Of a stretch of 64,000 bases of DNA, positions 1,089 through 32,592 are shown piece by piece. The translations under genes and the position numbers were made by a program. The stretch comes from Candidatus Omnitrophota bacterium (GTDB taxonomy: Bacteria; Omnitrophota; Gorgyraeia; Zapsychrales; JBAZNR01), in NCBI GenBank assembly GCA_041649175.1, contig JBAZNR010000003.1:15449-79448 (forward strand), given 5' to 3'. The stretch's first letter is position 1. Each line of letters opens with the position of its first letter. The notes beneath the pieces are model-generated. The model did no database searches. It was not told where the DNA came from and was given only the letters and a program-made list of their open reading frames with translations.

Positions 1089-1787
1089 ATGCCGCAAATA
1101 AATCTTTTAGCACCGGGATTTAAAAAAAGAGAAGTGACGCCGTCTACGGCCTCTTTCTCTAAGGCGCAGGCGCAATCTCAATTCCAGCAGAAAACAGAGA
1201 GAGTGTATCCAGGGATCTCTTCAGGTGTCTTGGATGTCTTGCCGGCGGTGGGTTTTCGTTGCGCGATTTGCGGTGGCATTATTCTTGCCATCTGGAGCTT
1301 TTTCTTGGTCAATATTCCTGGAAATCAAAAAACACTGAAAGAGCTAGAAGTAAAAGTTTCTGTTCTCGCCACTAATCCCAAAGAGATAGAGCGCATCAGG
1401 ACTGAGCGCGTCATTCTCGAAAAAAAAGTTAACCTTATCGACAATCTTTCTTCTCGGAAATTTTTATGGTCCGAAAAATTGGCCCTGATCGCGGATCTTA
1501 TCCCAGATGGAGTATGGATCAATGAAATACGTTCAAGCAGTAAGAAAGATGCGGCAGCGGCTAAAGCTCCTCCCAGCGATGAAAAAACAGTTTTCACTAT
1601 AAAAGGCACGGCTGTTGCTTACAAGATCCAAGATGCGGTCGGTCTTATTAGCGACTTTATAAAGAATTTACAAGAAAACGCTGATTTTTCTAAAGATTTT
1701 CAAGAGATCAAACTTAATACAATCGCGAAGGGAACTGTAGGGAGCTTGGATGTTATGAAGTTTGATTTATTGTGCGAATCTAAATAA
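1089..1787 (+). CDS. pilN: PilN-like type IV pilus inner-membrane assembly protein
   Basis: An N-terminal INLL(A)P motif is followed by a single TM helix, then a periplasmic region with the W..KL..L...IPDGVWINEIR pattern. This region is shared with the unambiguous PilN at 12166. Confidence 0.6.
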   Translation: MPQINLLAPGFKKREVTPSTASFSKAQAQSQFQQKTERVYPGISSGVLDVLPAVGFRCAICGGIILAIWSFFLVNIPGNQKTLKELEVKVSVLATNPKEIERIRTERVILEKKVNLIDNLSSRKFLWSEKLALIADLIPDGVWINEIRSSSKKDAAAAKAPPSDEKTVFTIKGTAVAYKIQDAVGLISDFIKNLQENADFSKDFQEIKLNTIAKGTVGSLDVMKFDLLCESK

Positions 1788-1800
1788 ACCAATTAAATAA

Positions 1801-2403
1801 ATGGCCAGACCTCCAGCAAGAAAACAGGCAACACCTCTTGACGATTATCTGAATTTGGCGATCAAGCACTCGCCAATATTGGCTCCTATTTTGGTTGTGA
1901 TTTTGGGAATCGCTGTTTTAATTTGGCCGTCGTACCAGAAGCTTTCGACCATTAAAGCTAGCATCAAAGAGAAACAAGATATTTTAACAATGGTTGACAG
2001 AAGCAGCGCGGATGTTAGTAAAATGCAGAAAGAATTAGAGATTTTTAAGAACAAAGTTGTTGAATTCGAAACTCGATTACCCAAAAGAATTAAAACAAAC
2101 TTGATCATTGAGACCTTGCAGGAAATTACTGAAAAGGCGAGCCTTAAGTTTTCTTCGCTTGAGCCAACAACCATTCGGAAACATGTTATCGCGGAGACAA
2201 ATGATACTTTTGTAGAATTGCCCATCCGAGTTAGATTGCGGTGCGGGTACTATGAAATGGTTAATTTTCTTAAGAAAATTGAAACCGCAAAACAGCTTAT
2301 GAAAATATCTGATCTAGTCATTATTGATGATCCGGCTGCGGATTGGGATCATGGCATTGAATTTACGATCAGTGCTTTTTCGCGAGGTGAAAATGGCGAC
2401 TAA
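1801..2403 (+). CDS. pilO: PilO-like type IV pilus assembly protein
   Basis: One TM helix near the N-terminus is followed by a coiled-coil region. It sits in the PilO position after PilN, and its size and architecture match PilO/GspM. Confidence 0.6.
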   Translation: MARPPARKQATPLDDYLNLAIKHSPILAPILVVILGIAVLIWPSYQKLSTIKASIKEKQDILTMVDRSSADVSKMQKELEIFKNKVVEFETRLPKRIKTNLIIETLQEITEKASLKFSSLEPTTIRKHVIAETNDTFVELPIRVRLRCGYYEMVNFLKKIETAKQLMKISDLVIIDDPAADWDHGIEFTISAFSRGENGD

Positions 2404-2803
2404 AGCGAAAAAAAAAGTTATTTATTTTATGAGCTTAATGGCTTTTTTGTCCACTATTTTCTTCCCGACGAGAACAATGTTTGGCCAAGGAGAGAAAAGC
2501 GCGGCTTCAACAAAAAAAAGAGACCCTTTTGTTGCATTAGTTAATTCTCAAGGTAAAATAAAAGCTAAGGAAGAATTATTTCCTTCTATTGCGCCTAAGT
2601 CGCTTTCTATGAATATTGTATTAAAGGCAATTATCTGGGATGAGGCGAGGCCGCTAGCGATGATCAACAATAAGGTGTATGGACAGGGAAGCGAAATCAC
2701 AAAAGGACTTATAGTCGAGAAGATCAATCCTAATGATGTGGTTCTTAATGACAATGGAAATCCTGTCGTTATCCAACTACGCAAAGCGGTGAAAAATGAT
2801 TAA
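2393..2803 (+). CDS. pilP: PilP-like small periplasmic/lipoprotein-like protein (start moved to the internal ATG at 2393)
   Basis: It starts MATKAKKKVIYFMSLMAFLSTIFF, a signal-like hydrophobic segment, and its C-terminal region reads IAMINNKVYGQGSEI. It lies between pilO and the secretin. The ORF-track start at 2324 would overlap pilO by 80 nt. Confidence 0.45.
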   Translation: MATKAKKKVIYFMSLMAFLSTIFFPTRTMFGQGEKSAASTKKRDPFVALVNSQGKIKAKEELFPSIAPKSLSMNIVLKAIIWDEARPLAMINNKVYGQGSEITKGLIVEKINPNDVVLNDNGNPVVIQLRKAVKND

Positions 2804-4376
2804 AACAAAAAAAATTTATTTTCTGATGTGTACCGTGGTGATGCTCGCATTTCCGATGGTGTTGTCGGCGCAAGAAGAAGCGCGGCAAGTTGACGAAAAC
2901 ATGGTTAGTCAGCCTCAAGCGGCTTCTTCCGACGCAATAGCACCGATGGCGCCTTCCATTGCTGCGGATGTTGCAACGAATGCGGGTTCAGAAAATGTTC
3001 CTTCTGTAAACTCCCCGGGAACAGAAAAAAACGACGACAACCTTATTAGCGTTAATTTTGAAAATGTTGATATTCGTGACGTTATTCGCATCCTTGCTGA
3101 CAAGGGCCATGTGAATATGATCGTTGGGCCCGATGTTGCGGCGACGGTGAATATTCAGTTGAATAATATAAGCTGGGAAAAAGCCTTAGATGTTATCCTG
3201 ATGACGTACAGTTTGACATATAAAAAGGACGGCGATCTTATTCGTATTATGACGCTTGATCAGCTACAGGTTGAAGATGAGAAAGTTCCTTTAGCAACAA
3301 AAATCATTAAGCTAAATTTTGCTCGCGGCGGGGAAGTGAAAAGTAATTTCGAGAAGATGCTTAGCGCGCGTGGCAGGATTGATGTTGTCGAGCGTACAAA
3401 TAGCCTCATTATCACGGATCTACCCGATAATATCGCCAGAATCGAGGAAATTGCCGTAGAGCTTGATACAAGAACTCCTCAGGTCATGATCGAGGCTTTA
3501 TTGGCGGATGTGGTTGTTAGCCAAGACGATCAATTGGGTATTAACTGGGATATCGCTTGGCCGGATGGAGGAGCTCCCCAAAGAACTATTGAACAGGATT
3601 TTGGTTCTCTTGGCGCTCCGGGCGGGATCATCACATTTGGAACAACCATGCTAACCGATAAAGATCTCCATGCGACAATTGCTGCTTGGCAACGGCAATC
3701 AAAAGTAAATATTTTGGCCCATCCACAAATAATGACCTTGGATAACCTAGCGGCAAAGATCAGCTTAACAGAGGAAATTCCGTATCAACAACAGACTGAT
3801 TCAACTGAAGGAGGTAGCGTTGTTTCAACTTCGTTTAAAGAATCAGGGATTAATCTAACGGTTATGCCGCACATCACGACCAAAGATAATTACATTTACT
3901 TGACCATTGATGTCAAGCAAAGTTTTCGTTCCGGATTTACGGCCGATGATCAGCCAATTGTTGATAGTCGCTCTGCTCAAACAAATCTTTTGGTCAAGAA
4001 CCGCGAAACTGCGGTTATTGGGGGCTTGCGCAAAAAGAATGATACATTCACCGTTAATAAGCTTCCTATTTTGGGAGACATTCCTTTGATTGGTTCAGCT
4101 TTTCGCAAACGCGTTGAGGCACTTTCGGATATAGACTTAATGATTTTTGTGACCCCAACAATCGTTACGGATGTCAATTTAACCGACAAACAAGAAAATA
4201 CTTTGGAATTGTTTGAAGAAGAAACCGAGGATTGGGCTCATCAATTTGATCAGGTGAAGCAAAAAAAGCGAGAGGGAACAGCGGAGCCGAAATCGGCAAC
4301 AATCGGGGCGAAAGAAGATGCCGAGCCGGATCTTTTTTATCTCAAGCCGCCTGCGCTGCTTAACGAGGGACGTTAA
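2796..4376 (+). CDS. pilQ: Secretin (PilQ/GspD family) outer-membrane channel
   Basis: It has a signal peptide and an N0-like domain (NFENVDIRDVIRILADKGHVNMIV). The secretin C-domain follows (TAVIGGLRKKNDTF...LPILGDIPLIGSAFR...IFVTPTIV). Confidence 0.85.
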   Translation: MIKTKKIYFLMCTVVMLAFPMVLSAQEEARQVDENMVSQPQAASSDAIAPMAPSIAADVATNAGSENVPSVNSPGTEKNDDNLISVNFENVDIRDVIRILADKGHVNMIVGPDVAATVNIQLNNISWEKALDVILMTYSLTYKKDGDLIRIMTLDQLQVEDEKVPLATKIIKLNFARGGEVKSNFEKMLSARGRIDVVERTNSLIITDLPDNIARIEEIAVELDTRTPQVMIEALLADVVVSQDDQLGINWDIAWPDGGAPQRTIEQDFGSLGAPGGIITFGTTMLTDKDLHATIAAWQRQSKVNILAHPQIMTLDNLAAKISLTEEIPYQQQTDSTEGGSVVSTSFKESGINLTVMPHITTKDNYIYLTIDVKQSFRSGFTADDQPIVDSRSAQTNLLVKNRETAVIGGLRKKNDTFTVNKLPILGDIPLIGSAFRKRVEALSDIDLMIFVTPTIVTDVNLTDKQENTLELFEEETEDWAHQFDQVKQKKREGTAEPKSATIGAKEDAEPDLFYLKPPALLNEGR

Positions 4377-4378
4377 CA

Positions 4379-5740
4379 ATGACAGTGTTCAATAAAGATT
4401 TTTTTCTTTCTTCAGTTTTTTTCTTAGCGTTGATGCTGGCGGGTTATGCCCAGGCTTCCGATGAAATAACGAATGATGGATGGACGCAAAGCCTATCAAA
4501 TCTAAAAAGCAGTATGAGTGAGCTTTTAAAGCAAAACGATGCCCTCTCTGTTGAGAATGATCTCTTAAGAAAAAAGATCGTTGAATTGCAGTCAGAACTA
4601 AAAAAAGCTGCAGAGGCAAAAGAAAAATTATCGCAAGAGCCGCGACGGCTTAATGCTCTTTTAGATGAGAAAAATAAAGAAGCTAGCTTACTTGAGAAGA
4701 AAATTCAAGAGATTCAAGCGCAAGTTCAGCAGCTTAAAACGGATCAAGATGAGACGCAAAAGAGTATTGCTCAGCGTCAGGAAAAACAAAAACCGCTTGA
4801 GGCTGAAGTCAAAGGATGGAAAGGAAAAATAGATCAGCTTGAAAAGGAGCTGAAGCTGTCCAAGAGTGATAATCAAAACTTTCTTAAAAAAGCAGAAAAT
4901 GAGAAAAGCGAATTAAAGAAGCAGTTGGTGGATAGCGAAAAGAAGCTTGCTCGGGTTCAAAAGAATTTAGAAGAAAGCAAAAAACGATCCGCACAACCAT
5001 CAGTGGAATCGGTAGCTTTAGCGGCTGATCAAGAAAAAATGTCTCAGGAGCTGGAAAGATTAAGAAATTTGATTCAAACGCACACTCAGGAGAAGCAAAA
5101 GCTGCAGGAAGAGAACATCCGCATCAGCGATCAGTATAAATCAGACCTTGATAAATTAAATCAACAAATCGCTGAGCTCAAAAAGCAAAATCAAGAATTA
5201 GAAAGCGTAGCCATTGCTCCTTTACCAAAAGTGCCCTCAGCGGCAAAGGACAAGAAGATTGCCAGCCAAACGGCTTCTCTAAAAGAAGAGAATAGCGCGC
5301 TGAAGAATAAAGTTTCGGAATTGATGGGCTCAGTTGTTAAACTCAATCGCGATAAGGCGATGATCGAATCACTGCTTGATGTCCAAACAAAAACGTTGAG
5401 AAAGAAAACCGTTGGCAGTAAAAAATCCGTCGATCAAACAAATCACGAGCTTTTGGCTTATAAATATGCGGCCAATGGCGAATACGAGAAAGCCATCGAG
5501 GAGTATCAATTGGCGATCGCGGCACGTCCTAAAAATAAAGATCTCTACTATAATCTTGGGTTTGTTTATGACCAGCTTGGGAAAAACGATGAAGCCATTG
5601 CGAATTACAAGCAAGTCTTAAAACTCAATCCCAACGACAAAGAAGCGAACTACAACTTAGCGCAAATCTACAAGAAGCTTTCCGATACGGCATCATACCA
5701 ATACTATTATGACCGTTTTATTAAACTCAATAAAAGATAA
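4379..5740 (+). CDS. Secreted coiled-coil protein with C-terminal TPR repeats, embedded in the pilus module
   Basis: A signal peptide (LALMLAGYAQA|SDE) is followed by about 330 aa of K/E/Q-rich heptad-like coiled coil. Two or three TPR repeats close the protein (AYKYAANGEYEKAIEEYQLAIAARPKNKDLYYNLGFVYDQLGKNDEAIANYKQVLKLNP). Confidence 0.6.
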   Translation: MTVFNKDFFLSSVFFLALMLAGYAQASDEITNDGWTQSLSNLKSSMSELLKQNDALSVENDLLRKKIVELQSELKKAAEAKEKLSQEPRRLNALLDEKNKEASLLEKKIQEIQAQVQQLKTDQDETQKSIAQRQEKQKPLEAEVKGWKGKIDQLEKELKLSKSDNQNFLKKAENEKSELKKQLVDSEKKLARVQKNLEESKKRSAQPSVESVALAADQEKMSQELERLRNLIQTHTQEKQKLQEENIRISDQYKSDLDKLNQQIAELKKQNQELESVAIAPLPKVPSAAKDKKIASQTASLKEENSALKNKVSELMGSVVKLNRDKAMIESLLDVQTKTLRKKTVGSKKSVDQTNHELLAYKYAANGEYEKAIEEYQLAIAARPKNKDLYYNLGFVYDQLGKNDEAIANYKQVLKLNPNDKEANYNLAQIYKKLSDTASYQYYYDRFIKLNKR

Positions 5741-5774
5741 AAACTGCATTAGTTTTCTGCGGGGAGAATAGCCT

Positions 5775-6800
5775 GTGTTCGGTGGGAAAAAAATTGCAAA
5801 GAAATCGGATGTAGCTATTGGCCTTGATGTCGGGAATTTTGCCGTCAAGGTTGTCCAGCTTAGCCAAAAAGGCGATACTTTTAATTTAGATAGTTTTGGC
5901 TATGCAAAGATCAATATTGAGAAATTAGATGGAGTCGTAGAGGCTATCAAAAATGCTTGCGCTGAAGCGGGTATCACGCAAAAAAAGGTTAATGCGTCTA
6001 TTACGCCGGAAGGCGTTATCGTCAGGTATTTAACATTGCCTGAGATGAATACGGATGAGCTTAAAAAAGCGATGGAATTTGAGATCGAACGTTATGTTCC
6101 ATTTGAGAGAAAAGATGTTGTTAATGACTATATGATCCTTAAAGAACGTCCCGATTCTAAGAATATGAAGATTTTGCTTGTTGCGGCAAAAAAAGATTTT
6201 GTCGAAAATCGGATCAAGATCTTGCGAGAGGCGGGCTTGGATCCGGAAGTCATTACCATTGATGCTATCGTTTTGAAGGACACTTTTCAATTGAATTACC
6301 CTGAGAAGAATAATAAAGTTGTAGGGCTTCTTAATATCGGAGCTAAATCTTCAAATATTAATATTGTTAAAGGTCCGACATCTTATTTTATGCGCGACAT
6401 CCAATTGGGGGGCGATAATATTACGCACCTGCTCAAAGAAAAGATTGATATCGGCCTGGAAGAAGCGGAAAAGATCAAGTGCAGCCTTACGCTGGAAGAC
6501 AAGGAGAAATTCAAGATCATTGAGCCGGTTCTGGGAAATTTATTGAATGAAGTTTATCTGTCGTTTGACTATTACGAAAGTGAATTTGGGCTGGTCGTTG
6601 ATGAAGTTTTTGTTAGTGGCGGTACGGCTCGCTTAAAATGGCTAACCGATTTCTTAAAGGAAAATCTTAACAGAGAAGTTTCCGTCCTAAGCCCTGTTAA
6701 GAGGTTCACCGCAGCTCCAGCTGTCTCACAATCACGCCTTGAATTATTTTCTCCCTCGCTTGTTGTTGCTACCGGTCTCGCCTTAGAGAATTTTAGTTAA
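5775..6800 (+). CDS. pilM: PilM-like actin-fold type IV pilus assembly protein
   Basis: The N-terminus VAIGLDVGNFAVKVVQL is an actin-like phosphate-1 motif. Overall similarity is to FtsA/PilM, and it is paralogous to the ORF at 11102. Confidence 0.75.
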   Translation: MFGGKKIAKKSDVAIGLDVGNFAVKVVQLSQKGDTFNLDSFGYAKINIEKLDGVVEAIKNACAEAGITQKKVNASITPEGVIVRYLTLPEMNTDELKKAMEFEIERYVPFERKDVVNDYMILKERPDSKNMKILLVAAKKDFVENRIKILREAGLDPEVITIDAIVLKDTFQLNYPEKNNKVVGLLNIGAKSSNINIVKGPTSYFMRDIQLGGDNITHLLKEKIDIGLEEAEKIKCSLTLEDKEKFKIIEPVLGNLLNEVYLSFDYYESEFGLVVDEVFVSGGTARLKWLTDFLKENLNREVSVLSPVKRFTAAPAVSQSRLELFSPSLVVATGLALENFS

Positions 6801-6867
6801 AACCTATTTTGTTTTCATAAGTACATTGCTTTCTGACGTGATCGTTGTTATGTCTGAATTGGGCTAT

Positions 6868-6896
6868 TTGACAATCCCTCAAATGGATGTTATACT
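6868..6896 (+). promoter_or_regulatory. Sigma70-type promoter (TTGACA-N17-TATACT)
   Basis: A perfect -35 TTGACA at 6868-6873 is followed by a 17-nt spacer and a -10 TATACT at 6891-6896. It lies just upstream of the riboswitch-like element. Confidence 0.55.
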
Positions 6897-6914
6897 TCAA
6901 ACAAGTAAGAGCTG

Positions 6915-6990
6915 TTGATAAAGGCAAACTACTCGTAAGGGTAGGGCGCAAAACTATAGGGTCCCGAGTTAGCATATGGGATTGCCAGTT
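6915..6990 (+). promoter_or_regulatory. Candidate c-di-GMP-I (GEMM) riboswitch aptamer in the pilA leader
   Basis: GGCAAAC sits at 6923-6929. A 6-bp helix CTACTC/GGGTAG closed by a GTAA (GNRA) tetraloop spans 6929-6944. GGCGCAAAAC at 6945-6954 resembles the conserved ACGCAAAGC. TATAGGGTCC follows at 6955-6964, and GGGATTGCC at 6978-6986 resembles GGGUUACC of Vc2. Confidence 0.5.
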
Positions 6991-7110
6991 GCCAATAGGA
7001 TGTCCGGTATTATTTATATTATATTTCACTGGCAAAGTTAGTTTGCGGCCTATTCTTTCATAACGGGGAATGGGTTTTTTTATTTTGATAAATTTTTTCC
7101 TCAAAATCGC

Positions 7111-7139
7111 TTGACACATAGAAAGGAGGTTGATAACAT
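7111..7139 (+). promoter_or_regulatory. Possible second sigma70-like promoter proximal to pilA (TTGACA-N17-TAACAT)
   Basis: TTGACA is at 7111-7116 and TAACAT at 7134-7139. The -10 is weaker. Confidence 0.3.
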
Positions 7140-7309
7140 AAAAACTAAGATAACGTATGGACGGAGCTGGGTGTACTAATCCGTAGTTGTCCAGGTGGTT
7201 AAGAAAAACAACAGCGGTATTATCCTAATCAGTTAAAGATTTTCTTAGCTTTCTGGATCAAGGAAGTGTAGCCTAAGCTTAATTTTGGTCCGGAAAGGAG
7301 GTTAAACAT

Positions 7310-7705
7310 ATGAAAAACAGAAAAGGTTTTACATTGGTTGAAATTATGATCGTTGTGGCTATCATCGCTTTGTTAGCTGCTATTGCTATCCCTAATTTAC
7401 TCAGGGCTAAGATTGCTGCTAACGATGCTGTTGCGAGCAGCACACTGCGTACCTTATCAACGGCAGCTGAAACTTTTGCCACGAGTAATCAGGGTACCTA
7501 TCCGTCTGATGTTGATGATTTAACCAACGCGACTCCTCCCTACATCAATAAAAATTACTGTGACGGGGTTACAGCAGCTGGCTTTACTTTTGATTGCGAT
7601 TGGGATACTGGCGGCTATACTCTTATAGCTTCTCCAGCAACGGTAGGCACAACCGGAAGCGCAACGTTTACCATGGTAACGGGAGGTATCTTAACGGGAA
7701 ACTAA
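7310..7705 (+). CDS. pilA: Type IVa major pilin
   Basis: MKNRKGFTLVEIMIVVAIIALLAAIAIPNL is a canonical class III signal with Gly-1, Phe+1 and Glu+5. A C-terminal Cys pair (NYCDG...FTFDC) forms the D-region. A strong RBS GGAAAGGAGG precedes the ATG. Confidence 0.9.
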   Translation: MKNRKGFTLVEIMIVVAIIALLAAIAIPNLLRAKIAANDAVASSTLRTLSTAAETFATSNQGTYPSDVDDLTNATPPYINKNYCDGVTAAGFTFDCDWDTGGYTLIASPATVGTTGSATFTMVTGGILTGN

Positions 7706-7742
7706 TAGGTAGTGGTTGTGGCAATGTGGTTTTTGCATAACT

Positions 7743-7776
7743 AGTGCGAAAGGGGCTTAAAAGCCCCTTTCGCACT
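7743..7776 (+). terminator. Perfect 16-bp palindromic stem-loop immediately after pilA, with no U-tract
   Basis: agtgcgaaaggggctt and aagcccctttcgcact are exact reverse complements. Confidence 0.5.
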
Positions 7777-7809
7777 AAAGGGAAAAATGCAGCACGAATA
7801 TTTTTATGA

Positions 7810-7846
7810 ACTATCGATTTTTTAAAGTCGATAGTTTTGTTTTTGT
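7810..7846 (+). terminator. Rho-independent terminator (8-bp stem followed by a T-rich tract)
   Basis: actatcga (7810-7817) pairs with tcgatagt (7828-7835), then tttgtttttgt follows. Confidence 0.55.
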
Positions 7847-7874
7847 AAGGCGCGGAAAACATCGGGTAAAAGCG

Positions 7875-7902
7875 TTGACTTTTTAATCTTCGACATTAAA
7901 AT
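7875..7902 (+). promoter_or_regulatory. Sigma70-like promoter for the minor pilin operon (TTGACT-N16-TAAAAT)
   Basis: The -35 TTGACT is at 7875-7880 and the -10 TAAAAT at 7897-7902. An AGGGAG RBS and the ATG at 7922 follow. Confidence 0.4.
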
Positions 7903-7921
7903 GCTTTCTAGGGAGCGCAAA

Positions 7922-8386
7922 ATGAGCAGGCAATTTCAAAATAAGAAAGTTTTGCTAAGGGGGCTAACGCTCGTAGAGACATTAGTCACAACTGTTGTTT
8001 TTTCTCTAGCTTTCTTGGGGGTCTTGTTCAGCTATGTGACTTGCCTTGAACTTAGTGAAATTGCTAAAAATTCATCCCAAGCCCTATTTGCTGTCAAATC
8101 ACAAATAGAAACAATAAAGAATACAAATTTTGATCAAGTAAAAACGGCATATAACAATACTTCATATGCAGCGGCTAATTTAGTGGGTATTGGAGTAAGC
8201 TATATCGATGATTCAAATCCAAGATTACTTTTCATTGTTAGCACGTTTTGTTGGCGGCAACCTAATGGCCGCGTAATCGGGGAGGACAGAAATCTCAACG
8301 CGCAACTCGATGCGGGAGAAGATCTAAATGGTAATGGCCGATTGGATTCTTTGGTGACAACGGTTGATTATATTTATGATCGGTGA
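7922..8386 (+). CDS. Minor pilin / prepilin-type N-terminal domain protein (start moved to the ATG at 7922 with an RBS)
   Basis: KVLLRGLTLVETLVTTVVFSLAF is a class III signal peptide with Gly-1 and Glu+5. Confidence 0.7.
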   Translation: MSRQFQNKKVLLRGLTLVETLVTTVVFSLAFLGVLFSYVTCLELSEIAKNSSQALFAVKSQIETIKNTNFDQVKTAYNNTSYAAANLVGIGVSYIDDSNPRLLFIVSTFCWRQPNGRVIGEDRNLNAQLDAGEDLNGNGRLDSLVTTVDYIYDR

Positions 8387-8392
8387 AAAACA

Positions 8393-9058
8393 ATGCAAGA
8401 AAACTCTTTTAAAAGAAATGTAAAAGGATTTACCCTAACCGAGGTTTTGATAACACTTGGCATCTTCTCTATTATGGGCGCGGGGATCTTTATCGTCTTA
8501 TCAGGCGGTAAATCAACCTGGTTTGACACGGATACGAGTATTGAATTGCAACAAGACTTAAGGATCGTTCTTGAGAAAACGACGCGAGAATTACATGAGT
8601 CTGGATTTGACAAAAACGGAGTTTTACAGGCTAATATTAACGATGGCGTTGGCCCGAATGGAACTGATACTCTAAGGTTTTCGATCCCTACCGTTTGCCA
8701 TGGCGGGGATAGCGTGGTTGATAGTAGCGGCGACGTTGTGCATTGGCGTGCTCCGTTAATCTGGGGCTGTACACAATCAAGCTGCATGGATGCTGACAAT
8801 GATTGTAATACCATTGATTATCAGTTTATAGAATATGGCGTGGATGCTCAAGATCAGTTTGTGCGAAAAGTGATCAGCGGGGCGGGCCTTGTTGTGAGGC
8901 AAGATATTTTCGCCAATAATATTAGTGACTTTCAAGTTGATGCCACGGTGGATGGAGGGCTTGTTACGTTAAGTATTAGCGCGCAGAAAAACTCACCGAC
9001 CGGAAGAGCATTGTCGGCAGCTGCCAGCATGGCCGTATATTTAAGGAATCGAGGGTAA
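8393..9058 (+). CDS. Minor pilin (PilW/PilV-like) with prepilin N-terminal domain
   Basis: RNVKGFTLTEVLITLGIFSIMGAGIFIV is a class III signal. The C-terminal region has Cys pairs. Confidence 0.7.
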   Translation: MQENSFKRNVKGFTLTEVLITLGIFSIMGAGIFIVLSGGKSTWFDTDTSIELQQDLRIVLEKTTRELHESGFDKNGVLQANINDGVGPNGTDTLRFSIPTVCHGGDSVVDSSGDVVHWRAPLIWGCTQSSCMDADNDCNTIDYQFIEYGVDAQDQFVRKVISGAGLVVRQDIFANNISDFQVDATVDGGLVTLSISAQKNSPTGRALSAAASMAVYLRNRG

Positions 9059-9062
9059 AGCT

Positions 9063-10766
9063 ATGAATAAGAAAAATACAAAAGGGACAGTTTTGATCGT
9101 TTCTCTGATGGCTGTTACGGTCCTCCTTATTTTGGGTGCGATGTTTATCGTTCGAGCCATCTCAGAAAAAGCTGCTTCTGACCGTGAACGTATGCTGACC
9201 CAAGCTTTTTATTTGGCCGACGGTGGTAGTCAGGTTGGAATTAATCAGATGGATGTATTGATCAATACGAATTTGATGGCCACTGTCAACAATACAAATC
9301 CGCAAGTTATTGCGAATGATGCAGCAGGTTATGTTGCTTCTGGTGATGGTTTAGGTTTTTTGATCCAGTATGCGCGCGATGGTGGCGCAGCACAATTTAT
9401 ATTGAATGGTGCGCAAGCACGTTATACGGGATCGGTTATTGCGGCGGGAAGCGGAACGTATCAGCACAGCATTATTGTTACCGAGAAGGGCAATCCGATT
9501 GCTGTAACTCCGGAGCAATGGGATTTTCCGTACTATTATCGGATTGAAACAACCGGAACTGTCGGTGGCGTTGTGCGAAAAATAGCCTTAACGGGCGATT
9601 TTACAGTTCGTGTCCAGAGAGATAATTTTGCGCGTTTTGCCTTATTCACAGATCATCACAGCTTGCCAAGCGGCGGGACAGTCTGGTTTACGAGCCGGAC
9701 AAATTTTTCTGGGCCGCTCCATACAAACGAACGCTATAGTTTTGCGTTTAATCCAAGTGGAACTTTTGACGGCATGGTTACCCAACATCATAATAGCGCC
9801 AGGTTTCATAATGGTGGGTCGTCTATTTTATCGGATGCGGATCAAAATGCTTCCATTGATGTTCCGGTATTTAATAGTGATTATGAACGTGGCGTTTCTG
9901 AAGTCAATCTGGAGTCATCTGTTCAGCAACAAGATCTCATTGACCAAGCCAGGGGCACCGACACAACGCCGGGTAACGGCATTTTTGTTGCCAATAATGG
10001 GAGCAATCTTATTGGAGGAATTTTTGTTAGAGGCGACTGCAATGTCAATATGAGCGTTAATGGAAGCGGAAACGCTGTTTATACGATCACGCAAGGCGCG
10101 ACAACAAAAATTGTCACGGTCGATATTTCCGGGAATCAAACAACTGTTCAGACGGTTGCAGGCCCGATCCAAACTTTTTCCGGACTTCCGGATGGCGTTG
10201 ATGATGTTGGAACTATTCTTTATGTTGATGGAGCGATTTCCAGCCTCGGAGGAACGGTTCAGCGAGACACAAAGCTAACAGTTGCCAGTCAAAATGATGT
10301 TATTTTGACGAACCATGTCATGTATGAAGATTATACTCCGGCTGTCGGAACGCCGGGAACTCCGGGATATGTTGCCCCACATGCTGACGACACGAATAAC
10401 ATGCTGGGCATTGTTTCCTGGGGAGGCGACGTGAGGATCGGCACAGTAGCTCCGGACGACATAAATATTCATGGCTCTGTTATGGCGCGTAACGGTGTTC
10501 TTACCGTCGATAACTATGACGATACGGCTGTTGGATCTCGCGGTGTTACAACGCTTTTAGGAGGGTCTATTACTCAGTTCTATGGTGCGTTTGGACAATT
10601 TAATAGCGTAACGGAACAGCAGATTTCTGGTTATGGCCGCAATTTTGTATATGACAATAGAATGTCTTTAGGGGCTGCGCCTCCGTATTTCCCGAGTATG
10701 CGAACATTCATTGCATTTACAAATGACTTAACCGATAAAATCACTTGGCAAGAGGGAGGATTTTAA
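9063..10766 (+). CDS. Large PilX-N-domain pilus-associated protein (possible tip adhesin, beta-rich repeat region)
   Basis: The N-terminus KGTVLIVSLMAVTVLLILGAMFIVRA resembles PilX N-terminal domains, which are hydrophobic and lack Glu+5. It is followed by about 500 aa rich in G/T/S/N/D. It sits in a minor-pilin operon. Confidence 0.55.
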   Translation: MNKKNTKGTVLIVSLMAVTVLLILGAMFIVRAISEKAASDRERMLTQAFYLADGGSQVGINQMDVLINTNLMATVNNTNPQVIANDAAGYVASGDGLGFLIQYARDGGAAQFILNGAQARYTGSVIAAGSGTYQHSIIVTEKGNPIAVTPEQWDFPYYYRIETTGTVGGVVRKIALTGDFTVRVQRDNFARFALFTDHHSLPSGGTVWFTSRTNFSGPLHTNERYSFAFNPSGTFDGMVTQHHNSARFHNGGSSILSDADQNASIDVPVFNSDYERGVSEVNLESSVQQQDLIDQARGTDTTPGNGIFVANNGSNLIGGIFVRGDCNVNMSVNGSGNAVYTITQGATTKIVTVDISGNQTTVQTVAGPIQTFSGLPDGVDDVGTILYVDGAISSLGGTVQRDTKLTVASQNDVILTNHVMYEDYTPAVGTPGTPGYVAPHADDTNNMLGIVSWGGDVRIGTVAPDDINIHGSVMARNGVLTVDNYDDTAVGSRGVTTLLGGSITQFYGAFGQFNSVTEQQISGYGRNFVYDNRMSLGAAPPYFPSMRTFIAFTNDLTDKITWQEGGF

Positions 10767-11101: not shown

Positions 11102-12175
11102 ATGAAAAGCCTACTAAATAAATATATTTCTTTTACCAACCGATTTGCTCCTAAGAGAGTCATTGAACCGTTCGTTGGCCTTGATATTGGCGCGAGCTCA
11201 TGCAAAGCTGTTGAGCTTGTCGTATGTGAAGATTCTTCGCGGGAAATTCTCAATTGGGCCGTGGAACCCTTAAACGAACTTAATGTCATTCAAAGCGTAA
11301 GGAAAGTCTTAGCTAAGCTTAACACAACTACGAAAAATTTTGCGACAGCAATTTCCGGGCAAGGAACGTTAGTCCGTTATATCGATATGCCCAGAATGTC
11401 CTTAGAAGACTTGCGCCGGTCTGTTGATGTGGAAGCTGACAAGCATTTTCCTTTTCCTAAAGATAAGATTTATACAGATTGTTGTATTCTTGATCCTCAA
11501 GGAAAAGACAGCAAGATGGCTGTTCTTATTGCGGCGGCGAAAAAAGAGGTCATTGCCCAGCGGCTCAAAATGCTTTCTGAGATCAATCTTCCGTCTGATT
11601 TTGTCGGTATCAACGCCATTGCTCTCGTCAATGCTTTTAATACCTTTCCGCCCCAAAACCTGGGCCAGAATTCTGCGCCACAATCTGGAAAATCCAACAT
11701 CATTGCTATTTTAGACATCGGCGACGTGGTGAGTAATTTGATCATCACAAAAGATAGCGTGCCCAGATTTACTCGGGATATTTTCATTGGAGGGCGGGAG
11801 CTTAACCGGCGCATTGCCAACGCTCTTAACGTCAACATGGAAGAAGCCGAAAAGATCAAATGCCAGCCCCAAGATAGATCTGAAAATGTTTTGCTTGCAT
11901 GCGATTCAACGCTCATTAATTTAGCATCCGAAATACGCCTTTCCTTTGATTATTTAGCGACGGAAAATAATATGCAAGTTAGCCGATTGTTTGCTACCGG
12001 AGGGTCGGCCATGTTTTCCGGCATTACTGACTTTCTTGCGAAGAATCTTGAGATCCCGGTTGAATTGTGGGATCCGTTTCTCTCTTTAAAATTATCACCT
12101 CAAGTTTCCCGATCAGAAATTGAAAAGAATTCGAGCCAACTGGCTGTAGCCCTAGGACTTGCCTTATGCTCCTAA
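11102..12175 (+). CDS. pilM: PilM type IV pilus assembly protein (second copy)
   Basis: FVGLDIGASSCKAVEL is an actin-like fold motif. It immediately precedes pilN with a 10-nt overlap. Confidence 0.8.
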   Translation: MKSLLNKYISFTNRFAPKRVIEPFVGLDIGASSCKAVELVVCEDSSREILNWAVEPLNELNVIQSVRKVLAKLNTTTKNFATAISGQGTLVRYIDMPRMSLEDLRRSVDVEADKHFPFPKDKIYTDCCILDPQGKDSKMAVLIAAAKKEVIAQRLKMLSEINLPSDFVGINAIALVNAFNTFPPQNLGQNSAPQSGKSNIIAILDIGDVVSNLIITKDSVPRFTRDIFIGGRELNRRIANALNVNMEEAEKIKCQPQDRSENVLLACDSTLINLASEIRLSFDYLATENNMQVSRLFATGGSAMFSGITDFLAKNLEIPVELWDPFLSLKLSPQVSRSEIEKNSSQLAVALGLALCS

Positions 12176-12768
12176 TTGACATTAATTTACTTCCGCCTGA
12201 TCTGCGAAAAAAGCGCGGTTCAAAAACCAGCAAGGACGCGATTGGAAATATCACCAATATACCTAAAGAAATGGTCTTTGGCTTGGTGGGCGGCCTTTTC
12301 TTTCTTTTAGTTGTTTTTAACTTGCTTTTGTTTGTGGTGACGTGTTTTAAATGGGTCCAATATTCTCGGGGGAATAAGCAGTGGGAGATCATCGCTCTCG
12401 ATAAAAAAAAGGTTGATAGCGTTTTAGGAGAGATGCGTTCTCTCCAAAGCAAAATTGCTTCAGTAGAGAAAGTTACAACGGGAAAAAGAATTTGCTGGGC
12501 TCAGAAGCTAAATGAATTGAGTAATAATATTCCCAAAGGGGTTTGGCTGAATAAGATTTCCTTAAGCGAAAAAGTGCTTTTGATCGATGGAAGCTCTGTG
12601 TCAAAAGTTGGTGAAGAAATGATCAGTGTCGGGAATTTTGCGTCAAATCTAAAGAATCAAAAGACATTTATGAATGGCTTAAAAAATGTTGAAGTAGGCT
12701 CTATTCAGCGCCGAAAAGTTCAATCTATTGAGATCGCGGATTTCTTGATTACGGTTAAATTGCAATGA
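12166..12768 (+). CDS. pilN: PilN type IV pilus assembly protein (second copy)
   Basis: The N-terminus MLLIDINLLPPDLRKKR carries the INLLP PilM-binding motif. It is followed by a TM helix and a periplasmic domain. Confidence 0.85.
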   Translation: MLLIDINLLPPDLRKKRGSKTSKDAIGNITNIPKEMVFGLVGGLFFLLVVFNLLLFVVTCFKWVQYSRGNKQWEIIALDKKKVDSVLGEMRSLQSKIASVEKVTTGKRICWAQKLNELSNNIPKGVWLNKISLSEKVLLIDGSSVSKVGEEMISVGNFASNLKNQKTFMNGLKNVEVGSIQRRKVQSIEIADFLITVKLQ

Positions 12769-13382
12769 AAAAAATTATCCCAGATAAGATCTTAAATATT
12801 TTATTGCAGGCAACAGAAAAAAATGGCCAATATATCCTCATCGGCGTTTTACTTGGCATCTTTCTTTTAATGTATGCTATTGTTACGCGCCCTATTTTAA
12901 ACAATCTTACGAAGATCAGCCCTAAAATTACTTTGCTTTCTAAGGATTATCGACAAGCTTTGTCTGATATTAAGAATGTTGAAAATTATCAAGCCCAGGT
13001 TGTGCAATTTCGAGAAAAAATGAAAACGGTCGGGCTCAAGATTCTTTCTAAAGAAGAAATTCCCGCGATTCTAGAAAATATCTCGAGACTTGCCGGGCAA
13101 TCTAAGGTGCACATTAGTCAGATCATGCCGCTTAAAGAATCACAGGAATTAATCCTATCGAATGATGAAGGGAAGTACTACTCGCTTCCTATTTTGGTGA
13201 ATGCCCGCGGAGGTTACCATGATATTGGGCGTTTTTTTAATAAAATAGAGAACGATAAGATCTTTATGAGCGTGATAGACTTTGATATTGCGGCAACCAG
13301 CGATGATCCCTTAAAACATTTGGCCAAAATTACGATTAAAGCATTTATCCTCGAGAAAATCGAAGGCAAGGAGGCAAAATGA
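12765..13382 (+). CDS. pilO: PilO type IV pilus assembly protein (second copy)
   Basis: It has a TM helix and a coiled-coil domain, and sits in the canonical position with a 4-nt overlap with pilN. Confidence 0.7.
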   Translation: MKKIIPDKILNILLQATEKNGQYILIGVLLGIFLLMYAIVTRPILNNLTKISPKITLLSKDYRQALSDIKNVENYQAQVVQFREKMKTVGLKILSKEEIPAILENISRLAGQSKVHISQIMPLKESQELILSNDEGKYYSLPILVNARGGYHDIGRFFNKIENDKIFMSVIDFDIAATSDDPLKHLAKITIKAFILEKIEGKEAK

Positions 13383-13723
13383 ACATCCTTGCTTTTATGG
13401 CAGTATTTTTCGTTTCGGTTCTTGTCTGGGCCCAAGATGCTGATTTTACGTATAGCGACCAGGGGAAGCGTGATCCTCTTTGGCGGCTCGTTACTCCCAG
13501 CGGATCGATTATTAATTATGATTCCGATGTCCTTGTTTCGGATATGATTTTAGAAGGGATCATTTTTGATCCTAGCGGCAAAAGCCTCGCTATTATAAAC
13601 GGCAATGTCGTTGAGCAAAATCGTCGTATTGGCCCGTTTGTTGTTTCAAAGATCGAAGCAAAGCGAGTAACGTTAACCAAGGGGCAAGAAAATTTTGTTT
13701 TAGAATTGAAAAAGGAGGAATGA
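13379..13723 (+). CDS. pilP: PilP-like small secreted protein (second copy)
   Basis: It has a signal peptide (MNILAFMAVFFVSVLVWAQDA) and is small and beta-rich. It lies between pilO and the secretin with a 4-nt overlap. Confidence 0.55.
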   Translation: MNILAFMAVFFVSVLVWAQDADFTYSDQGKRDPLWRLVTPSGSIINYDSDVLVSDMILEGIIFDPSGKSLAIINGNVVEQNRRIGPFVVSKIEAKRVTLTKGQENFVLELKKEE

Positions 13724-13724
13724 G

Positions 13725-15215
13725 ATGACACAAAAAGCGGTCATCGCGATATTTATTCTTTGCTTAACCTGTTTTGCGGTTTACGCGCAAGATAGCGGTG
13801 AAGCTGTCAGCTCTACGGATGAATCTTCCGTTTCAGCTGTCGCCGAAGCAACCGATAATGAAAGCGCGTTAGCGCCATCTGATGGCGAGCAAGCAGTTTT
13901 CCCCGGAACAATAGAGCCGACAGTTTCACTGGAAACAAATCCGGCTACCCCGGAGCTTTCAACATTGCCTGATCCCGGGCATGTTACTCTTGATTTTCGC
14001 GATGCTGAGATACGAAATGTTTTAAGGATCTTAGCGTATAAAAGCGGTGTTAACATTGTTGCCGGCCCGGAAGTAACGGGCTTAGTAACGATCCAGCTTA
14101 ACAATGTTCCCTGGGAAGAAGCCCTAAAAGTCATTCTCGAAACATATGGCTACGGATATGACAAAAGAGGGAACATCATCTTGGTCACAACGGTAGATAA
14201 TCTTAAGAAAAGGCGGGAAGATAATCAATTATTGTCGGAGCAAGAGCCGCTGATGACCAAGACATTTGTCCTTAATTATGCAAAGGCAGAGGAAATTGTC
14301 TCTTCCATTGAGAAAATGAAGACGGCACGCGGCAGCGTGAACTTTGATTCCCGGACGAACTCTATCATCCTTCGCGATACTTCAAGCAACCTTGCGCTGA
14401 TCAGTGATATCATGCCTTCTTTAGACGCCACAACACCCCAGGTTTTAATTGAGGCAAAAATAATCGAAGCAACGCTTAGCAATACGGAGAATTTGGGTAT
14501 TGACTGGGTGGCTAAAGCGGCAGCATCGGGGTCAGAGCGGCCTACGATCTTTCCTTTTACGACGATATCTGAAAATAGGTATCTTCCTGATAATATTCCG
14601 GCGGCAGGGGCTGATTTATTTACTTATGGAACGCTTGATTTCTCGCAATTTTCGGCCGTTTTAGAATTGCTTAAAAACAGGTCAGATACCAACATTCTTT
14701 CTAATCCTCGCATTGTCACTTTAGATAATCAAAAAGCAAGCATTACGGTGGGGACACAATATCCCATTCCGACATATACGTACAACGAAGAGCAGGCCAG
14801 GCTCCAGGTGTCGGGCTGGGAATATAAAGATATTGGAATTATTTTTGAGGTAACGCCCCATGTTAATAATGCGGGGTTTGTTACGATGGATATTCAACCC
14901 AAGGTAACGGCGATCTTGGATTATGTAACTGTTGAAAACACTTCGCTTCCCAGGCTCAGCTCAGAATCTGCCACGACAAAAGTGATGATCAAAGATGGTT
15001 ATACTCTTGTCATCGCGGGGCTCATCAAAAATCAGGCAACCGACGTTAAGAAAAAGATCCCTTTTCTGGGGGATATTCCTATCGCGGGTTTAGCATTTCA
15101 GAAAAGTGAAAAGACAATGACTAAAACGGATCTGTTGATTTTTATGACGCCACATATCATTACTGCCAACGAGCCTGTGGTTTTGAAAGAAGCAACAACC
15201 ACGCCGAAGCCATAG
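13725..15215 (+). CDS. pilQ: Secretin PilQ (second copy)
   Basis: It has a signal peptide and an N0 domain (DFRDAEIRNVLRILAYKSGVNIVAGPEVTGLVTIQLNNVPWEEALKVIL). The secretin domain follows (VIAGLIKNQATDVKKKIPFLGDIPIAGLAFQ...IFMTPHII). Confidence 0.85.
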   Translation: MTQKAVIAIFILCLTCFAVYAQDSGEAVSSTDESSVSAVAEATDNESALAPSDGEQAVFPGTIEPTVSLETNPATPELSTLPDPGHVTLDFRDAEIRNVLRILAYKSGVNIVAGPEVTGLVTIQLNNVPWEEALKVILETYGYGYDKRGNIILVTTVDNLKKRREDNQLLSEQEPLMTKTFVLNYAKAEEIVSSIEKMKTARGSVNFDSRTNSIILRDTSSNLALISDIMPSLDATTPQVLIEAKIIEATLSNTENLGIDWVAKAAASGSERPTIFPFTTISENRYLPDNIPAAGADLFTYGTLDFSQFSAVLELLKNRSDTNILSNPRIVTLDNQKASITVGTQYPIPTYTYNEEQARLQVSGWEYKDIGIIFEVTPHVNNAGFVTMDIQPKVTAILDYVTVENTSLPRLSSESATTKVMIKDGYTLVIAGLIKNQATDVKKKIPFLGDIPIAGLAFQKSEKTMTKTDLLIFMTPHIITANEPVVLKEATTTPKP

Positions 15216-15236: not shown

Positions 15237-16532
15237 ATGTCAAAAGAAATACTCATTCATATTAAAGAGGGTGAGCGTTACGCGGCTGTTATTGAAGACG
15301 GAAAGCTCGATGATTTTCATATCGAATTAGACCGCCAAGACTCTACCCTGGGAAACATCTACAAAGGAAAAGTTGAAACCATTCTTCCGTCAATTAATGG
15401 AGCCTTCGTTAATATCGGCCATGAAAAAAACGGTTTTTTGTATCTTACGGATGCCATTAACCCTTTAGTCGAGGCAGAGATATCACCGACCAAGCGTTTC
15501 ATCAATAAGCTTCTTAACCGCCCGGAAAAGAAAGAAAAAAAAGATCATAAGCCTATTCCATTTAAAGAAGGCGACGAGGTCTTAGTCCAGGTTGTTAAAG
15601 AACCGTTTGGAACCAAGGGCGCGCGTTTAACAACGCATATTAGCCTTGCCGGGCGATTTGTTGTTTATATGCCTTATGATCAGCATGTTGGAGTCTCCAA
15701 ACGCATTGAGGAAGGCGAAGAACGTCATCGCCTAAAAGAATTATTAAAGGAACTTGATTTTGGGCAGACCGGAGGTTTTATCGTCCGGACGGCATCATTG
15801 CAAAAAGGCAAGCGGGAGCTTATTCGGGACGCAAAATTCTTGATCACTGTCTGGCGAAAGATCAAAAAGTTAGCCGAAGAAAAAAGCGCACCAGCTCTTA
15901 TCTATAAGGAATACGATCTAGTTTGGCGGGTTATTCGGGATTACTTGAGAGAAGACGTCGATAAAGTCTTTGTTGACTCTCAGGAAGAGTATGGTAAGAT
16001 ACGCCGATTTGTCCACAATTTGATCGGAAAAGAAATGCTGGACAAAATTCACTGTTACAAGGGTGAAGCCCCGATCTTTGAAGCAAAGAATGTCTCTCGG
16101 CAGTTGGAAAAGATTTACGATAAGCGGGTTTATCTTAAATCGGGCGCTTATATTGTTATTGAACCAACGGAAGGGTTGATCGTCGTTGATGTCAATAGCG
16201 GGCGCTTTAAGGCTAATGCTTCACCGGAAGAAGCTGCCTTTCTGGTCAATAAAGAAGCAGCCCCCGAAATTGCCAGGCAGTTGCGTTTAAGGGATTTAGG
16301 TGGTATCATTGTCATTGATTTTATCGATATGTCGAGAGAAAACCATAAAAGGCAAGTGGTTGATGCTCTTGAGCTTGCTTTAGAAAAAGATTATGCCAAG
16401 ACGGAAGTTATGAAAATATCGTCTTTGGGATTAGTGGAAATGACCAGGGCGAGGACGGGAAAGACTTTGGAGTCTATCTCGTTTCAAGATTGCCCTTATT
16501 GTGACGGCCGCGGTCGAATTAAAATTGACTAA
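15237..16532 (+). CDS. rng: Ribonuclease G / RNase E-G family endoribonuclease
   Basis: S1-domain N-terminus (GNIYKGKVETILPSINGAFVNIG), the catalytic DNase-I-like region and the C-terminal Zn-link CPYCDGRG all match RNase G. Confidence 0.85.
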   Translation: MSKEILIHIKEGERYAAVIEDGKLDDFHIELDRQDSTLGNIYKGKVETILPSINGAFVNIGHEKNGFLYLTDAINPLVEAEISPTKRFINKLLNRPEKKEKKDHKPIPFKEGDEVLVQVVKEPFGTKGARLTTHISLAGRFVVYMPYDQHVGVSKRIEEGEERHRLKELLKELDFGQTGGFIVRTASLQKGKRELIRDAKFLITVWRKIKKLAEEKSAPALIYKEYDLVWRVIRDYLREDVDKVFVDSQEEYGKIRRFVHNLIGKEMLDKIHCYKGEAPIFEAKNVSRQLEKIYDKRVYLKSGAYIVIEPTEGLIVVDVNSGRFKANASPEEAAFLVNKEAAPEIARQLRLRDLGGIIVIDFIDMSRENHKRQVVDALELALEKDYAKTEVMKISSLGLVEMTRARTGKTLESISFQDCPYCDGRGRIKID

Positions 16533-25909: not shown

Positions 25910-25982
<73 letters not shown>

Positions 25983-26178: not shown

Positions 26179-26252
26179 AGGCCTGTAGCTCTAATTGGTA
26201 GAGCGACGGTCTCCAAAACCGAAGGTTGCAGGTTCGAGTCCTGCCAGGCCTG
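26179..26252 (+). tRNA. tRNA-Trp (anticodon CCA)
   Basis: It folds as a cloverleaf with acceptor AGGCCUG/CAGGCCU. The anticodon loop is CUCCAAA and the T-arm is GCAGGUUCGAGUCCUGC. This is the canonical rpmG-tRNATrp-secE-nusG context. Confidence 0.85.
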
Positions 26253-32582: not shown

Positions 32583-32592
32583 GGCTCAAACT

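Follow-up and report, generated by a model that had tools for sequence, protein, structure and literature searches.

A predicted GEMM-I riboswitch in the leader of a major type IV pilin gene of Candidatus Omnitrophota

Background

Does the long interval that separates pilM from the major pilin gene in a type IV pilus cluster of Candidatus Omnitrophota hold a riboswitch, and, if it does, which ligand does it bind and in which direction does it control the pilin gene? The DNA in question (hereafter the window) is a stretch of 64,000 nucleotides (nt) from contig JBAZNR010000003.1, and the interval takes up 509 nt of it (6801–7309). A preliminary description, made from the sequence alone, had proposed that a riboswitch of the GEMM-I type, responsive to cyclic diguanylate (c-di-GMP), lies there behind a consensus promoter and gates expression of the pilin gene (pilA). 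Our analysis finds a conserved and covarying GEMM-I aptamer between a promoter and an intrinsic terminator, and the reading that we favour, with some reserve, is that positions 6868–7081 form a self-contained riboswitch unit in the pilin leader, in which c-di-GMP would switch transcription OFF by means of the terminator.

Omnitrophota are uncultured, often ultra-small bacteria, and to our knowledge almost nothing is known of their regulation. In this group, a conserved riboswitch for a cyclic dinucleotide ahead of the major pilin gene offers a concrete link between a second messenger and pilus production, and we found no publication in which this phylum and a c-di-GMP riboswitch are both named. 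The element is also one more c-di-GMP-I example beside a gene of motility or adhesion, a placement that is well known and was to be expected.

Identification and fold of the aptamer

The entire window was compared with Rfam 15 using cmscan at the gathering thresholds. The search returned two tRNAs and one riboswitch match, the sole match of the c-di-GMP clan shown: positions 6914–6997 of the forward strand match RF03167 (c-di-GMP-I-GGC) with 60.6 bits (gathering score 59, E 8e-12 per window). A second, overlapping match of the same clan, with a lower score, also passed its own gathering threshold; it is most likely RF01051 (gathering score 35). The strings on which the preliminary description had based its GEMM-I candidate, namely GGCAAAC (6923–6929, a junction strand), the hairpin CTACTC-GTAA-GGGTAG, GGCGCAAAAC (6945–6954) and GGGATTGCC (6978–6986), are all present at these coordinates, and the candidate itself is borne out by a clan model above its gathering score and by the compensatory changes described below. 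One correspondence has to be revised: GGGAUUGCC (6978–6986) had been taken as the counterpart of GGGGUUACC of the Vc2 aptamer, a role that the covariance-model alignment assigns to CCAGUUGCC at 6985–6993, whereas GGGAUUGCC is the distal 3' strand of helix P1b and includes the interhelical G6984.

The fold was evaluated in an alignment (A1) of nine sequences, i.e. the window and eight orthologues, with a hand-written GEMM-I structure of 23 base pairs (coordinates in Table 1). In this alignment 96.1% of the cells are paired, and compensatory (two-sided) changes occur in 8 of the 23 pairs, spread over four of the five helices. The observed values were not reached in any of 500 column shuffles, and registers slid along the alignment paired at 27–47%. 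The model built locally from A1 (R1) scores the window aptamer at 101.6 bits. Three bases of Vc2, G20, A47 and C92, contact the ligand (PMC4744006, PMC5888326), and all three have identical equivalents in the window; the interhelical Watson-Crick pair C44:G83 of Vc2, described as universally conserved (PMC4744006), corresponds to a C and a G that are invariant in all nine aligned sequences. The element is, in our opinion, almost certainly a functional GEMM-I aptamer.

A second aptamer copy was considered as well. The only other match of R1 in the window (15789–15885, forward strand, 17.5 bits, E 0.04, including AAAGGCAAGC...GGGACGCAAAA) falls within the RNase E/G gene (15237–16532) and was taken as a chance match.

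Conservation in related loci

Thirteen loci around PilM orthologues (L001–L013) were collected: PilM scans of genome and metagenome contigs contributed one locus each, and further loci were obtained by exact-protein look-ups. We refer to the window together with L001–L007 and L012 as the close loci (n=9) and to L008, L009 and L011 as the distant ones. Rfam models identify the aptamer at the same place, the interval from pilM to the pilin gene, in 8 of the 13 loci (L001–L007 and L012). RF03167 is the best model for seven of these eight (65.0, 63.5, 63.1, 59.6, 58.0, 51.3 and 49.9 bits, of which the last three lie below the gathering score), while L012 is best matched by the canonical RF01051 (59.9 bits vs a gathering score of 35).

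In the three distant loci, R1 searches revealed more divergent copies ahead of the pilin gene: L011 (3592–3751, 53.8 bits), L008 (about 3590–3767, 31.5 bits) and L009 (about 3470–3672, 24.8 bits), none of which Rfam reports at E<=0.01. These copies carry insertions of 50–90 nt, either after helix P1a (between the equivalents of C44 and A45) or within the P1a loop, and after each of them come the CCUAUUCUU... hairpin, to which a T run is attached in L008 and L011, and the promoter-like block P2 discussed below. The order seen in the close loci (promoter P1, aptamer, linker, terminator, P2, leader) is mostly kept. R1 found no aptamer in L010 and L013, where hisG, not a pilin gene, follows pilM. 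Thus, the aptamer is present in 12 of 12 loci (window included) in which a pilin gene follows pilM, directly or past one pilin-like gene, and in neither of the two loci without it. The conservation upstream of pilA orthologues that the preliminary description had proposed as a check was in this way found with Rfam in eight loci and with R1 in three more.

Or perhaps the similarity is due to chance, or the element is a decayed relic that no longer functions? Such a view could draw on the narrow excess of the window match over the RF03167 gathering score (only 1.6 bits) and on the three of seven RF03167-matched orthologues that stay below it. It is, however, at odds with the E-value of the match, with compensatory changes in four of the five helices and with the conservation of position, promoter and terminator across loci whose PilM proteins are only 55–70% identical, and we regard it as extremely improbable.

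Assignment to a GEMM-I subclass and the likely ligand

The best Rfam model for the window is not RF01051 but RF03167, the c-di-GMP-I-GGC family, which Weinberg and colleagues are said to have described in 2017 as an orphan variant. In the same work the variants were reportedly named after bases 20, 47 and 92, which agrees with both Rfam consensus lines. In the core these two lines differ at a single base (GACGCAAAgC in RF01051 vs GACGCGAAgC in RF03167), which is position 47 of Vc2. This position is A in the window (A6950, in CGCAAA), in all nine aligned sequences, and in L008, L009 and L011; thus, the base that distinguishes RF03167, G47, is absent though the gathering score of that family is passed. 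The comparison of the alignments suggests that RF03167 scores best because the model and the window share a short P1b without the receptor positions. Judged by its fold and contact bases, the element belongs to the c-di-GMP-I (GEMM-I) class, and by the variant's defining base it is neither a GGC variant nor a GEMM-Ib member.

The relationship to the known groups can be summarized as follows. With RF01051 and Vc2 the window aptamer shares helices P1, GNRA-capped P1a and P1b, the junction strands GGCAAAC and CGCAAA, the G20/A47/C92 triplet, the interhelical C:G pair and the association with motility and pilus genes; it differs from them in the lack of the 11-nt P1b receptor, in its higher score with the sister model RF03167 and in its host, a member of Omnitrophota. 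With RF03167 it shares, apart from the top score, a short P1b that lacks the receptor, and UGCC as the 3' junction, but the variant has G47 (CGCGAA) where the window and its orthologues have A47 (CGCAAA). The GEMM-Ib riboswitches of Geobacter, which sense cyclic AMP-GMP (c-AMP-GMP), are built on the GEMM-I scaffold too, and the diagnostic G20A change is found in two orthologues, unlike in the window, where position 20 (G6923) is G. Altogether, position 20 (column 18 of A1) is G in seven of the nine aligned sequences, the window included, and A in L002 (3514–3616) and L012 (3105–3197). In view of these G20A orthologues, the cyclic dinucleotide that controls this gene may differ among related Omnitrophota.

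Is c-di-GMP then the ligand? Several observations count against this part of our interpretation. The best model is an orphan variant; the score of RF01051 is below 60.6 bits on the aptamer and below 46.9 bits on the core (6920–6993), where RF03167 again wins with 46.9 bits; the window P1b has no match to the 11-nt tetraloop receptor (CUAAG...UAUG in the RF01051 consensus), a docking site that many but not all members of the class have; and a search for GGDEF motifs in the 64-kb window found none, a result that is uninformative as the window is only part of the genome. The preference for RF03167 in the window and in seven of eight orthologues, the missing receptor and A20 in L002 and L012, a change typical of c-AMP-GMP sensors, could together be read as signs of a different ligand, with the RNA as a member of the orphan GGC class, a c-AMP-GMP sensor or a promiscuous sensor of cyclic dinucleotides. 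Yet the G47 of the GGC consensus is replaced by A in the window and in all orthologues, the window has the contact triplet of Vc2 (PMC4744006), and the short P1b would explain the preference for the GGC model. We therefore consider another ligand improbable. As the contact bases are the canonical G, A and C, the case for c-di-GMP stands despite RF03167 being the best model, and c-di-GMP is probably the ligand. More generally, placement by Rfam in the orphan c-di-GMP-I-GGC family can follow the helix architecture while the defining base stays canonical, which calls for caution when variant riboswitches are counted from Rfam matches.

Expression platform and direction of control

The aptamer lies between two conserved signals. 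The near-consensus promoter at 6868–6896 noted in the preliminary description (promoter P1) was recovered by a consensus scan and is conserved: its TATACT element (as TGnTATACT) is invariant, and a TTGACA-like -35 element is found 17 nt away, in all nine close loci and in L011. Its predicted start lies near 6903–6905, and in the close loci the aptamer begins 17–44 nt past the -10 element. The linker that follows the aptamer is not conserved in sequence and varies from 8 to 50 nt in the close loci. Beyond it, the T7 run that had been suggested as an attenuator indeed follows a 12-pair hairpin, with the correction that the run spans 7075–7081 and not 7074–7080. In all nine close loci, and also in L008 and L011, a comparable hairpin (-11.5 to -19 kcal/mol) and T run come after the aptamer, and the stem of the terminator, CCUAUUCUU/GAGAAUAGG, shows unusual sequence conservation. 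A possible sigma54 promoter at TGGCAAAGTTAGTTTGC (7030–7046) was also considered and rejected, as its GG-GC spacing is 2 nt too long and none was seen in the orthologues.

Secondary structure predictions suggest how the two elements could communicate. When the aptamer fold was enforced, every base pair of the terminator remained intact in 9 of 9 loci. In transcripts cut short ahead of the 3' arm of the terminator, the 5' arm is predicted to pair with the aptamer. The tetraloop and P1a 3' strand are that partner in six of nine loci, and the pairing in the window joins 6937–6945 with 7049–7057 (probability 0.67–1.0). The terminator in effect mimics P1a (CUAUUC/GGAUAG). A nine-position register, fixed by the CC whose partner is the GG ahead of the T run, was evaluated over 12 loci: 91.7% of the cells are pairable vs 42–68% in slid registers, and all nine positions can pair in 8 of the 12 loci. 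The best duplex between arm and aptamer lies below the mean of permuted arms in all nine loci (per-locus p 0.016–0.35); relative to shuffled aptamers the per-locus p ranges from 0.03 to 0.78.

The mechanism that we favour on these grounds would work as follows. Transcription would start at promoter P1, a strong promoter of the sigma70 type, and the first ~95 nt of the RNA would fold into the GEMM-I aptamer, with the terminator ~50 nt past it. With the ligand bound, the aptamer including P1a would stay folded and leave the 5' arm of the terminator free, the terminator would form and the transcript from P1 would end at ~7081. Without the ligand, the 5' arm CCUAUUCUU (7049–7057) would take the place of the P1a 5' strand opposite AAGGGUAGG (6937–6945), and the 9-bp antiterminator so formed would let RNA polymerase read on into the pilin gene. 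That the riboswitch acts through the terminator appears likely; that c-di-GMP causes termination rather than preventing it is the direction towards which we lean. A different antiterminator, on the 3' strand of helix P1 (AAUAGG 6994–6999 with CCUAUU 7049–7054), is present in the window but has no conserved equivalent that could be found by eye, and in truncated transcripts the arm is predicted to pair elsewhere; it was dropped in favour of the P1a pairing.

The proposed antiterminator also has to face several unfavourable findings. The per-locus significance of the pairing between arm and aptamer is weak. The helix has no compensatory changes at all and column shuffles reach the same level of pairing, so that the evidence is one of conserved complementarity and not of covariation. 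In L003 and L007 other segments of the aptamer are the partners of the terminator arm. In full-length minimum-free-energy folds, calculated without a ligand term, the terminator forms in 8 of 9 loci, hence the antiterminator would have to act kinetically. Finally, invasion of the internal helix P1a rather than of P1 is unusual.

For class I, comparison with Clostridioides difficile speaks for the OFF direction. There, all seven functional class I c-di-GMP riboswitches are terminator-based OFF switches (PMC6366702). The riboswitch of pilA1 belongs to class II and switches ON, and control is known not to keep its direction from one species to the next (PMC6366702). The closest parallel to the mechanism favoured for the window is Cd1 (Cdi-1-3) of the flgB operon, in which a class I aptamer is likewise followed by an intrinsic terminator and c-di-GMP raises termination (PMC6366702); Cd1 differs in that it controls flagellar, not pilin genes, has no known internal promoter past the terminator and has an established direction, where that of the window is a prediction. 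Cdi-2-4, upstream of pilA1, resembles the window in being a c-di-GMP riboswitch in the leader of a major type IV pilin gene that acts on a terminator (PMC6366702), but its c-di-GMP-II aptamer has an unrelated fold and its direction is the opposite one (ON).

Could the same aptamer and terminator nevertheless make an ON switch, in which c-di-GMP would prevent termination and raise pilin production, as at C. difficile pilA1? High c-di-GMP favours type IV pili in several bacteria, and both pilA1 (class II) and the class I Bc2 are ON switches (PMC6366702). In addition, the linker CUGGCAA (7029–7035) can pair with UUGCCAG of the aptamer (6983–6989), so that a three-state design is possible in principle. 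The linker sequence is not conserved, though, and its complementarities vary from locus to locus. The terminator hairpin lies wholly outside the aptamer, neither of its arms shares any segment with the bound aptamer, and, since the enforced aptamer spares all terminator pairs in every one of the nine loci, no ON design of the overlapping kind is visible. An ON switch seems to us rather unlikely.

A variation of the platform was seen in L012, where tandem intrinsic terminators follow the aptamer (3205–3271), UCCUAUUCC...GGAAUAGGA and CCUGUUCUUC...GAGAACAGG. These dual terminators recall Bc1 of Bacillus thuringiensis, a class I riboswitch with two terminators and, like the element studied here, a long and complex platform. 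No response of Bc1 to c-di-GMP was seen either in vitro or in vivo; unlike Bc1, the window has a single terminator, followed by a promoter-like block.

The P2 block and the pilin leader

The second, downstream promoter of the preliminary description (TTGACA at 7111, TAACAT) was likewise found by the consensus scan, and a pattern search detected the corresponding block, TTGACA-16/17/18-(TGn)TAnnnT, in 10 of 12 loci, 150–190 nt before the pilin ATG. The spacer of P2 in the window holds a Shine-Dalgarno-like sequence, GAAAGGAGG (7121–7129), the same 9-mer as the Shine-Dalgarno sequence of the pilin gene (7293–7301), and A(A)GGAGG is present in the spacer in nine of the ten loci with the block. 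Promoter spacers are normally not conserved.

If P2 is a promoter, it could render the switch irrelevant for pilin output, which is a further point against our interpretation of the unit. As the block is conserved and lies 3' of the terminator, the switch may govern only those transcripts that start at P1. P2 is probably a basal source of pilin mRNA, independent of c-di-GMP, and the riboswitch would then modulate pilin expression rather than fully gate it. Of the earlier claim that pilA is gated by c-di-GMP, the identity of the second messenger is supported by the canonical G, A and C, while gating is too strong a word.

Another reading is that the P1 transcript is an independent RNA of ~180 nt that is always terminated, e.g. 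a small RNA or a sponge that binds c-di-GMP, and that the pilin mRNA originates from P2 only, so that the riboswitch would have no effect in cis on the pilin gene. The terminator that forms in unconstrained full-length folds of eight of nine loci would fit this picture, as would the conserved near-consensus block with an extended -10 element past the terminator in most loci. It is harder to reconcile with the constant placement of the unit, which always points toward and directly precedes a pilin gene and is absent where the pilin gene is absent, or with a terminator stem whose conserved sequence is able to pair with the aptamer, a property for which a simple terminator would have no use. Moreover, P2 may be, or may also be, an element that acts at the RNA level, as its spacer holds the conserved Shine-Dalgarno-like 9-mer. 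Overall, an independent RNA appears unlikely.

An RNA-level role of this kind has a precedent in cry3A of B. thuringiensis, where the transcript begins at -558 and its processed form is stabilised by STAB-SD, a Shine-Dalgarno-like sequence ~129 nt 5' of the start codon (PMC4113751). By analogy, it is possible that 7121–7129 stabilises the RNA that reads through from P1; every pilin transcript would then have to pass the riboswitch. P2 could serve as a promoter plus operator, act like STAB-SD on the read-through RNA, or do both. A leader peptide translated from the upstream GAAAGGAGG was considered too, and rejected on reading the sequence, since neither the window nor L001 nor L002 has a start codon suitably spaced from it.

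In the pilin leader downstream of P2, a predicted hairpin (7249–7259 with 7287–7297, CUUUCUGGAUC with GGUCCGGAAAG) covers the 5' half of the pilin Shine-Dalgarno sequence. Comparative support for it is weak (7 pairs, 3 of them with double changes, consensus energy -2.9 kcal/mol). A conserved CUUAAU was noted in its loop region.

Taken jointly, these features raise the question whether the pilin-leader RNAs of Omnitrophota are a distinct sub-lineage of GEMM-I with several unusual properties. Such RNAs may have no tetraloop receptor, the orphan GGC family as best model and distant members with 50–90-nt insertions that Rfam misses; base 20 may toggle between G and A and so wire the pilin gene to c-di-GMP or c-AMP-GMP (or both), depending on the species; the P1a-mimicking terminator may invade the aptamer core, rather than P1, by strand exchange; and the P2 block, with its Shine-Dalgarno-like sequence, may also stabilise the 5' end of the read-through RNA. 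As a whole this combination is unlikely. The points that make the locus unusual (the G20A orthologues, the relatives with insertions, the mimicry of P1a and the conserved P2 spacer) lie mostly outside the window or are tentative.

Gene neighborhood and other features of the window

Table 1. Features of the riboswitch locus in the window. The base pairs of a helix are given as 5' strand with 3' strand.
Feature	Position	Strand	Basis or comment
pilM	5775..6800	+	Pfam PilM_2, 3e-59; last gene of the pilN-pilO-secretin-TPR-pilM set
Promoter P1, TTGACA-17-TATACT, TG extension	6868..6896	+	11/12 consensus match
GEMM-I (c-di-GMP-I clan CL00126) aptamer	6912..6998	+	RF03167 cmscan match, alignment of nine sequences
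Helix P1	6912–6917 with 6993–6998		
G-C clamp around P1a	6924–6925 with 6948–6949		
Helix P1a, CTACTC/GGGTAG, GUAA loop (6935–6938)	6929–6934 with 6939–6944		
Helix P1b	6952–6964 with 6979–6990		
Equivalents of the ligand-contact bases	G20 = G6923, A47 = A6950, C92 = C6992		Covariance-model alignment
Interhelical pair	C6947 with G6984		A1 columns 42 and 99
Tetraloop and P1a 3' strand, AAGGGUAGG	6937..6945	+	Proposed antiterminator partner of the terminator 5' arm
A/U-rich linker, small hairpin GCAAA-GUUAG-UUUGC (7032–7046)	6999..7046	+	Sequence and folds
Intrinsic terminator, 12-pair hairpin (5' arm GGCCUAUUCUUU) and T7 run	7047–7076, T7 run 7075–7081	+	Terminator scan
Promoter-like block P2, TTGACA-17-TGATAACAT (TAACAT)	7111..7139	+	10/12 consensus match, TG extension
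Pilin leader (~165 nt) downstream of P2	7146..7309	+	Fold
Major pilin gene	7310..7705	+	131 aa, N-terminal methylation motif; Pfam N_methyl, 9e-10
Terminator-like hairpin 3' of the pilin gene	7808–7837		Terminator scan

The unit is set in a type IV pilus cluster, with pilN, pilO, a secretin and a TPR protein upstream of pilM, and with further pilin-like genes and a second pilM-N-O-secretin set downstream of the pilin gene. The PilM protein is 100% identical to P0001 (a JGI protein), and its relatives at 55–71% identity are annotated as Candidatus Omnitrophota. The preliminary description gave the length of the gap between pilM and the pilin gene correctly and considered it free of credible genes, which agrees with our results: two mechanical open reading frames (ORFs) cross it, 6793–7119 on the reverse strand (108 aa) and 6887–7063 on the forward strand (58 aa), and both were rejected as genes. 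Neither has a Pfam match, there are no gene calls at their positions in five orthologous loci, and the likeness of the antisense ORF to its counterpart in L001 is confined to the aptamer stretch.

The two separate pilM/pilN/pilO/secretin sets (1089–6800 and 11102–15215) flank the pilin and minor-pilin genes at 7310–10766; the machinery for pilus assembly is thus duplicated inside one 15-kb stretch. Elsewhere in the window, and unrelated to the riboswitch, are the two tRNA genes (25910–25982, 65.9 bits, and 26179–26252, 64.4 bits), which are followed by a run of ORFs on one strand (29127–36711). This run, unrelated to the riboswitch as well, includes ORFs of 1151 aa and 1372 aa, whose size suggests that they are rpoB and rpoC.

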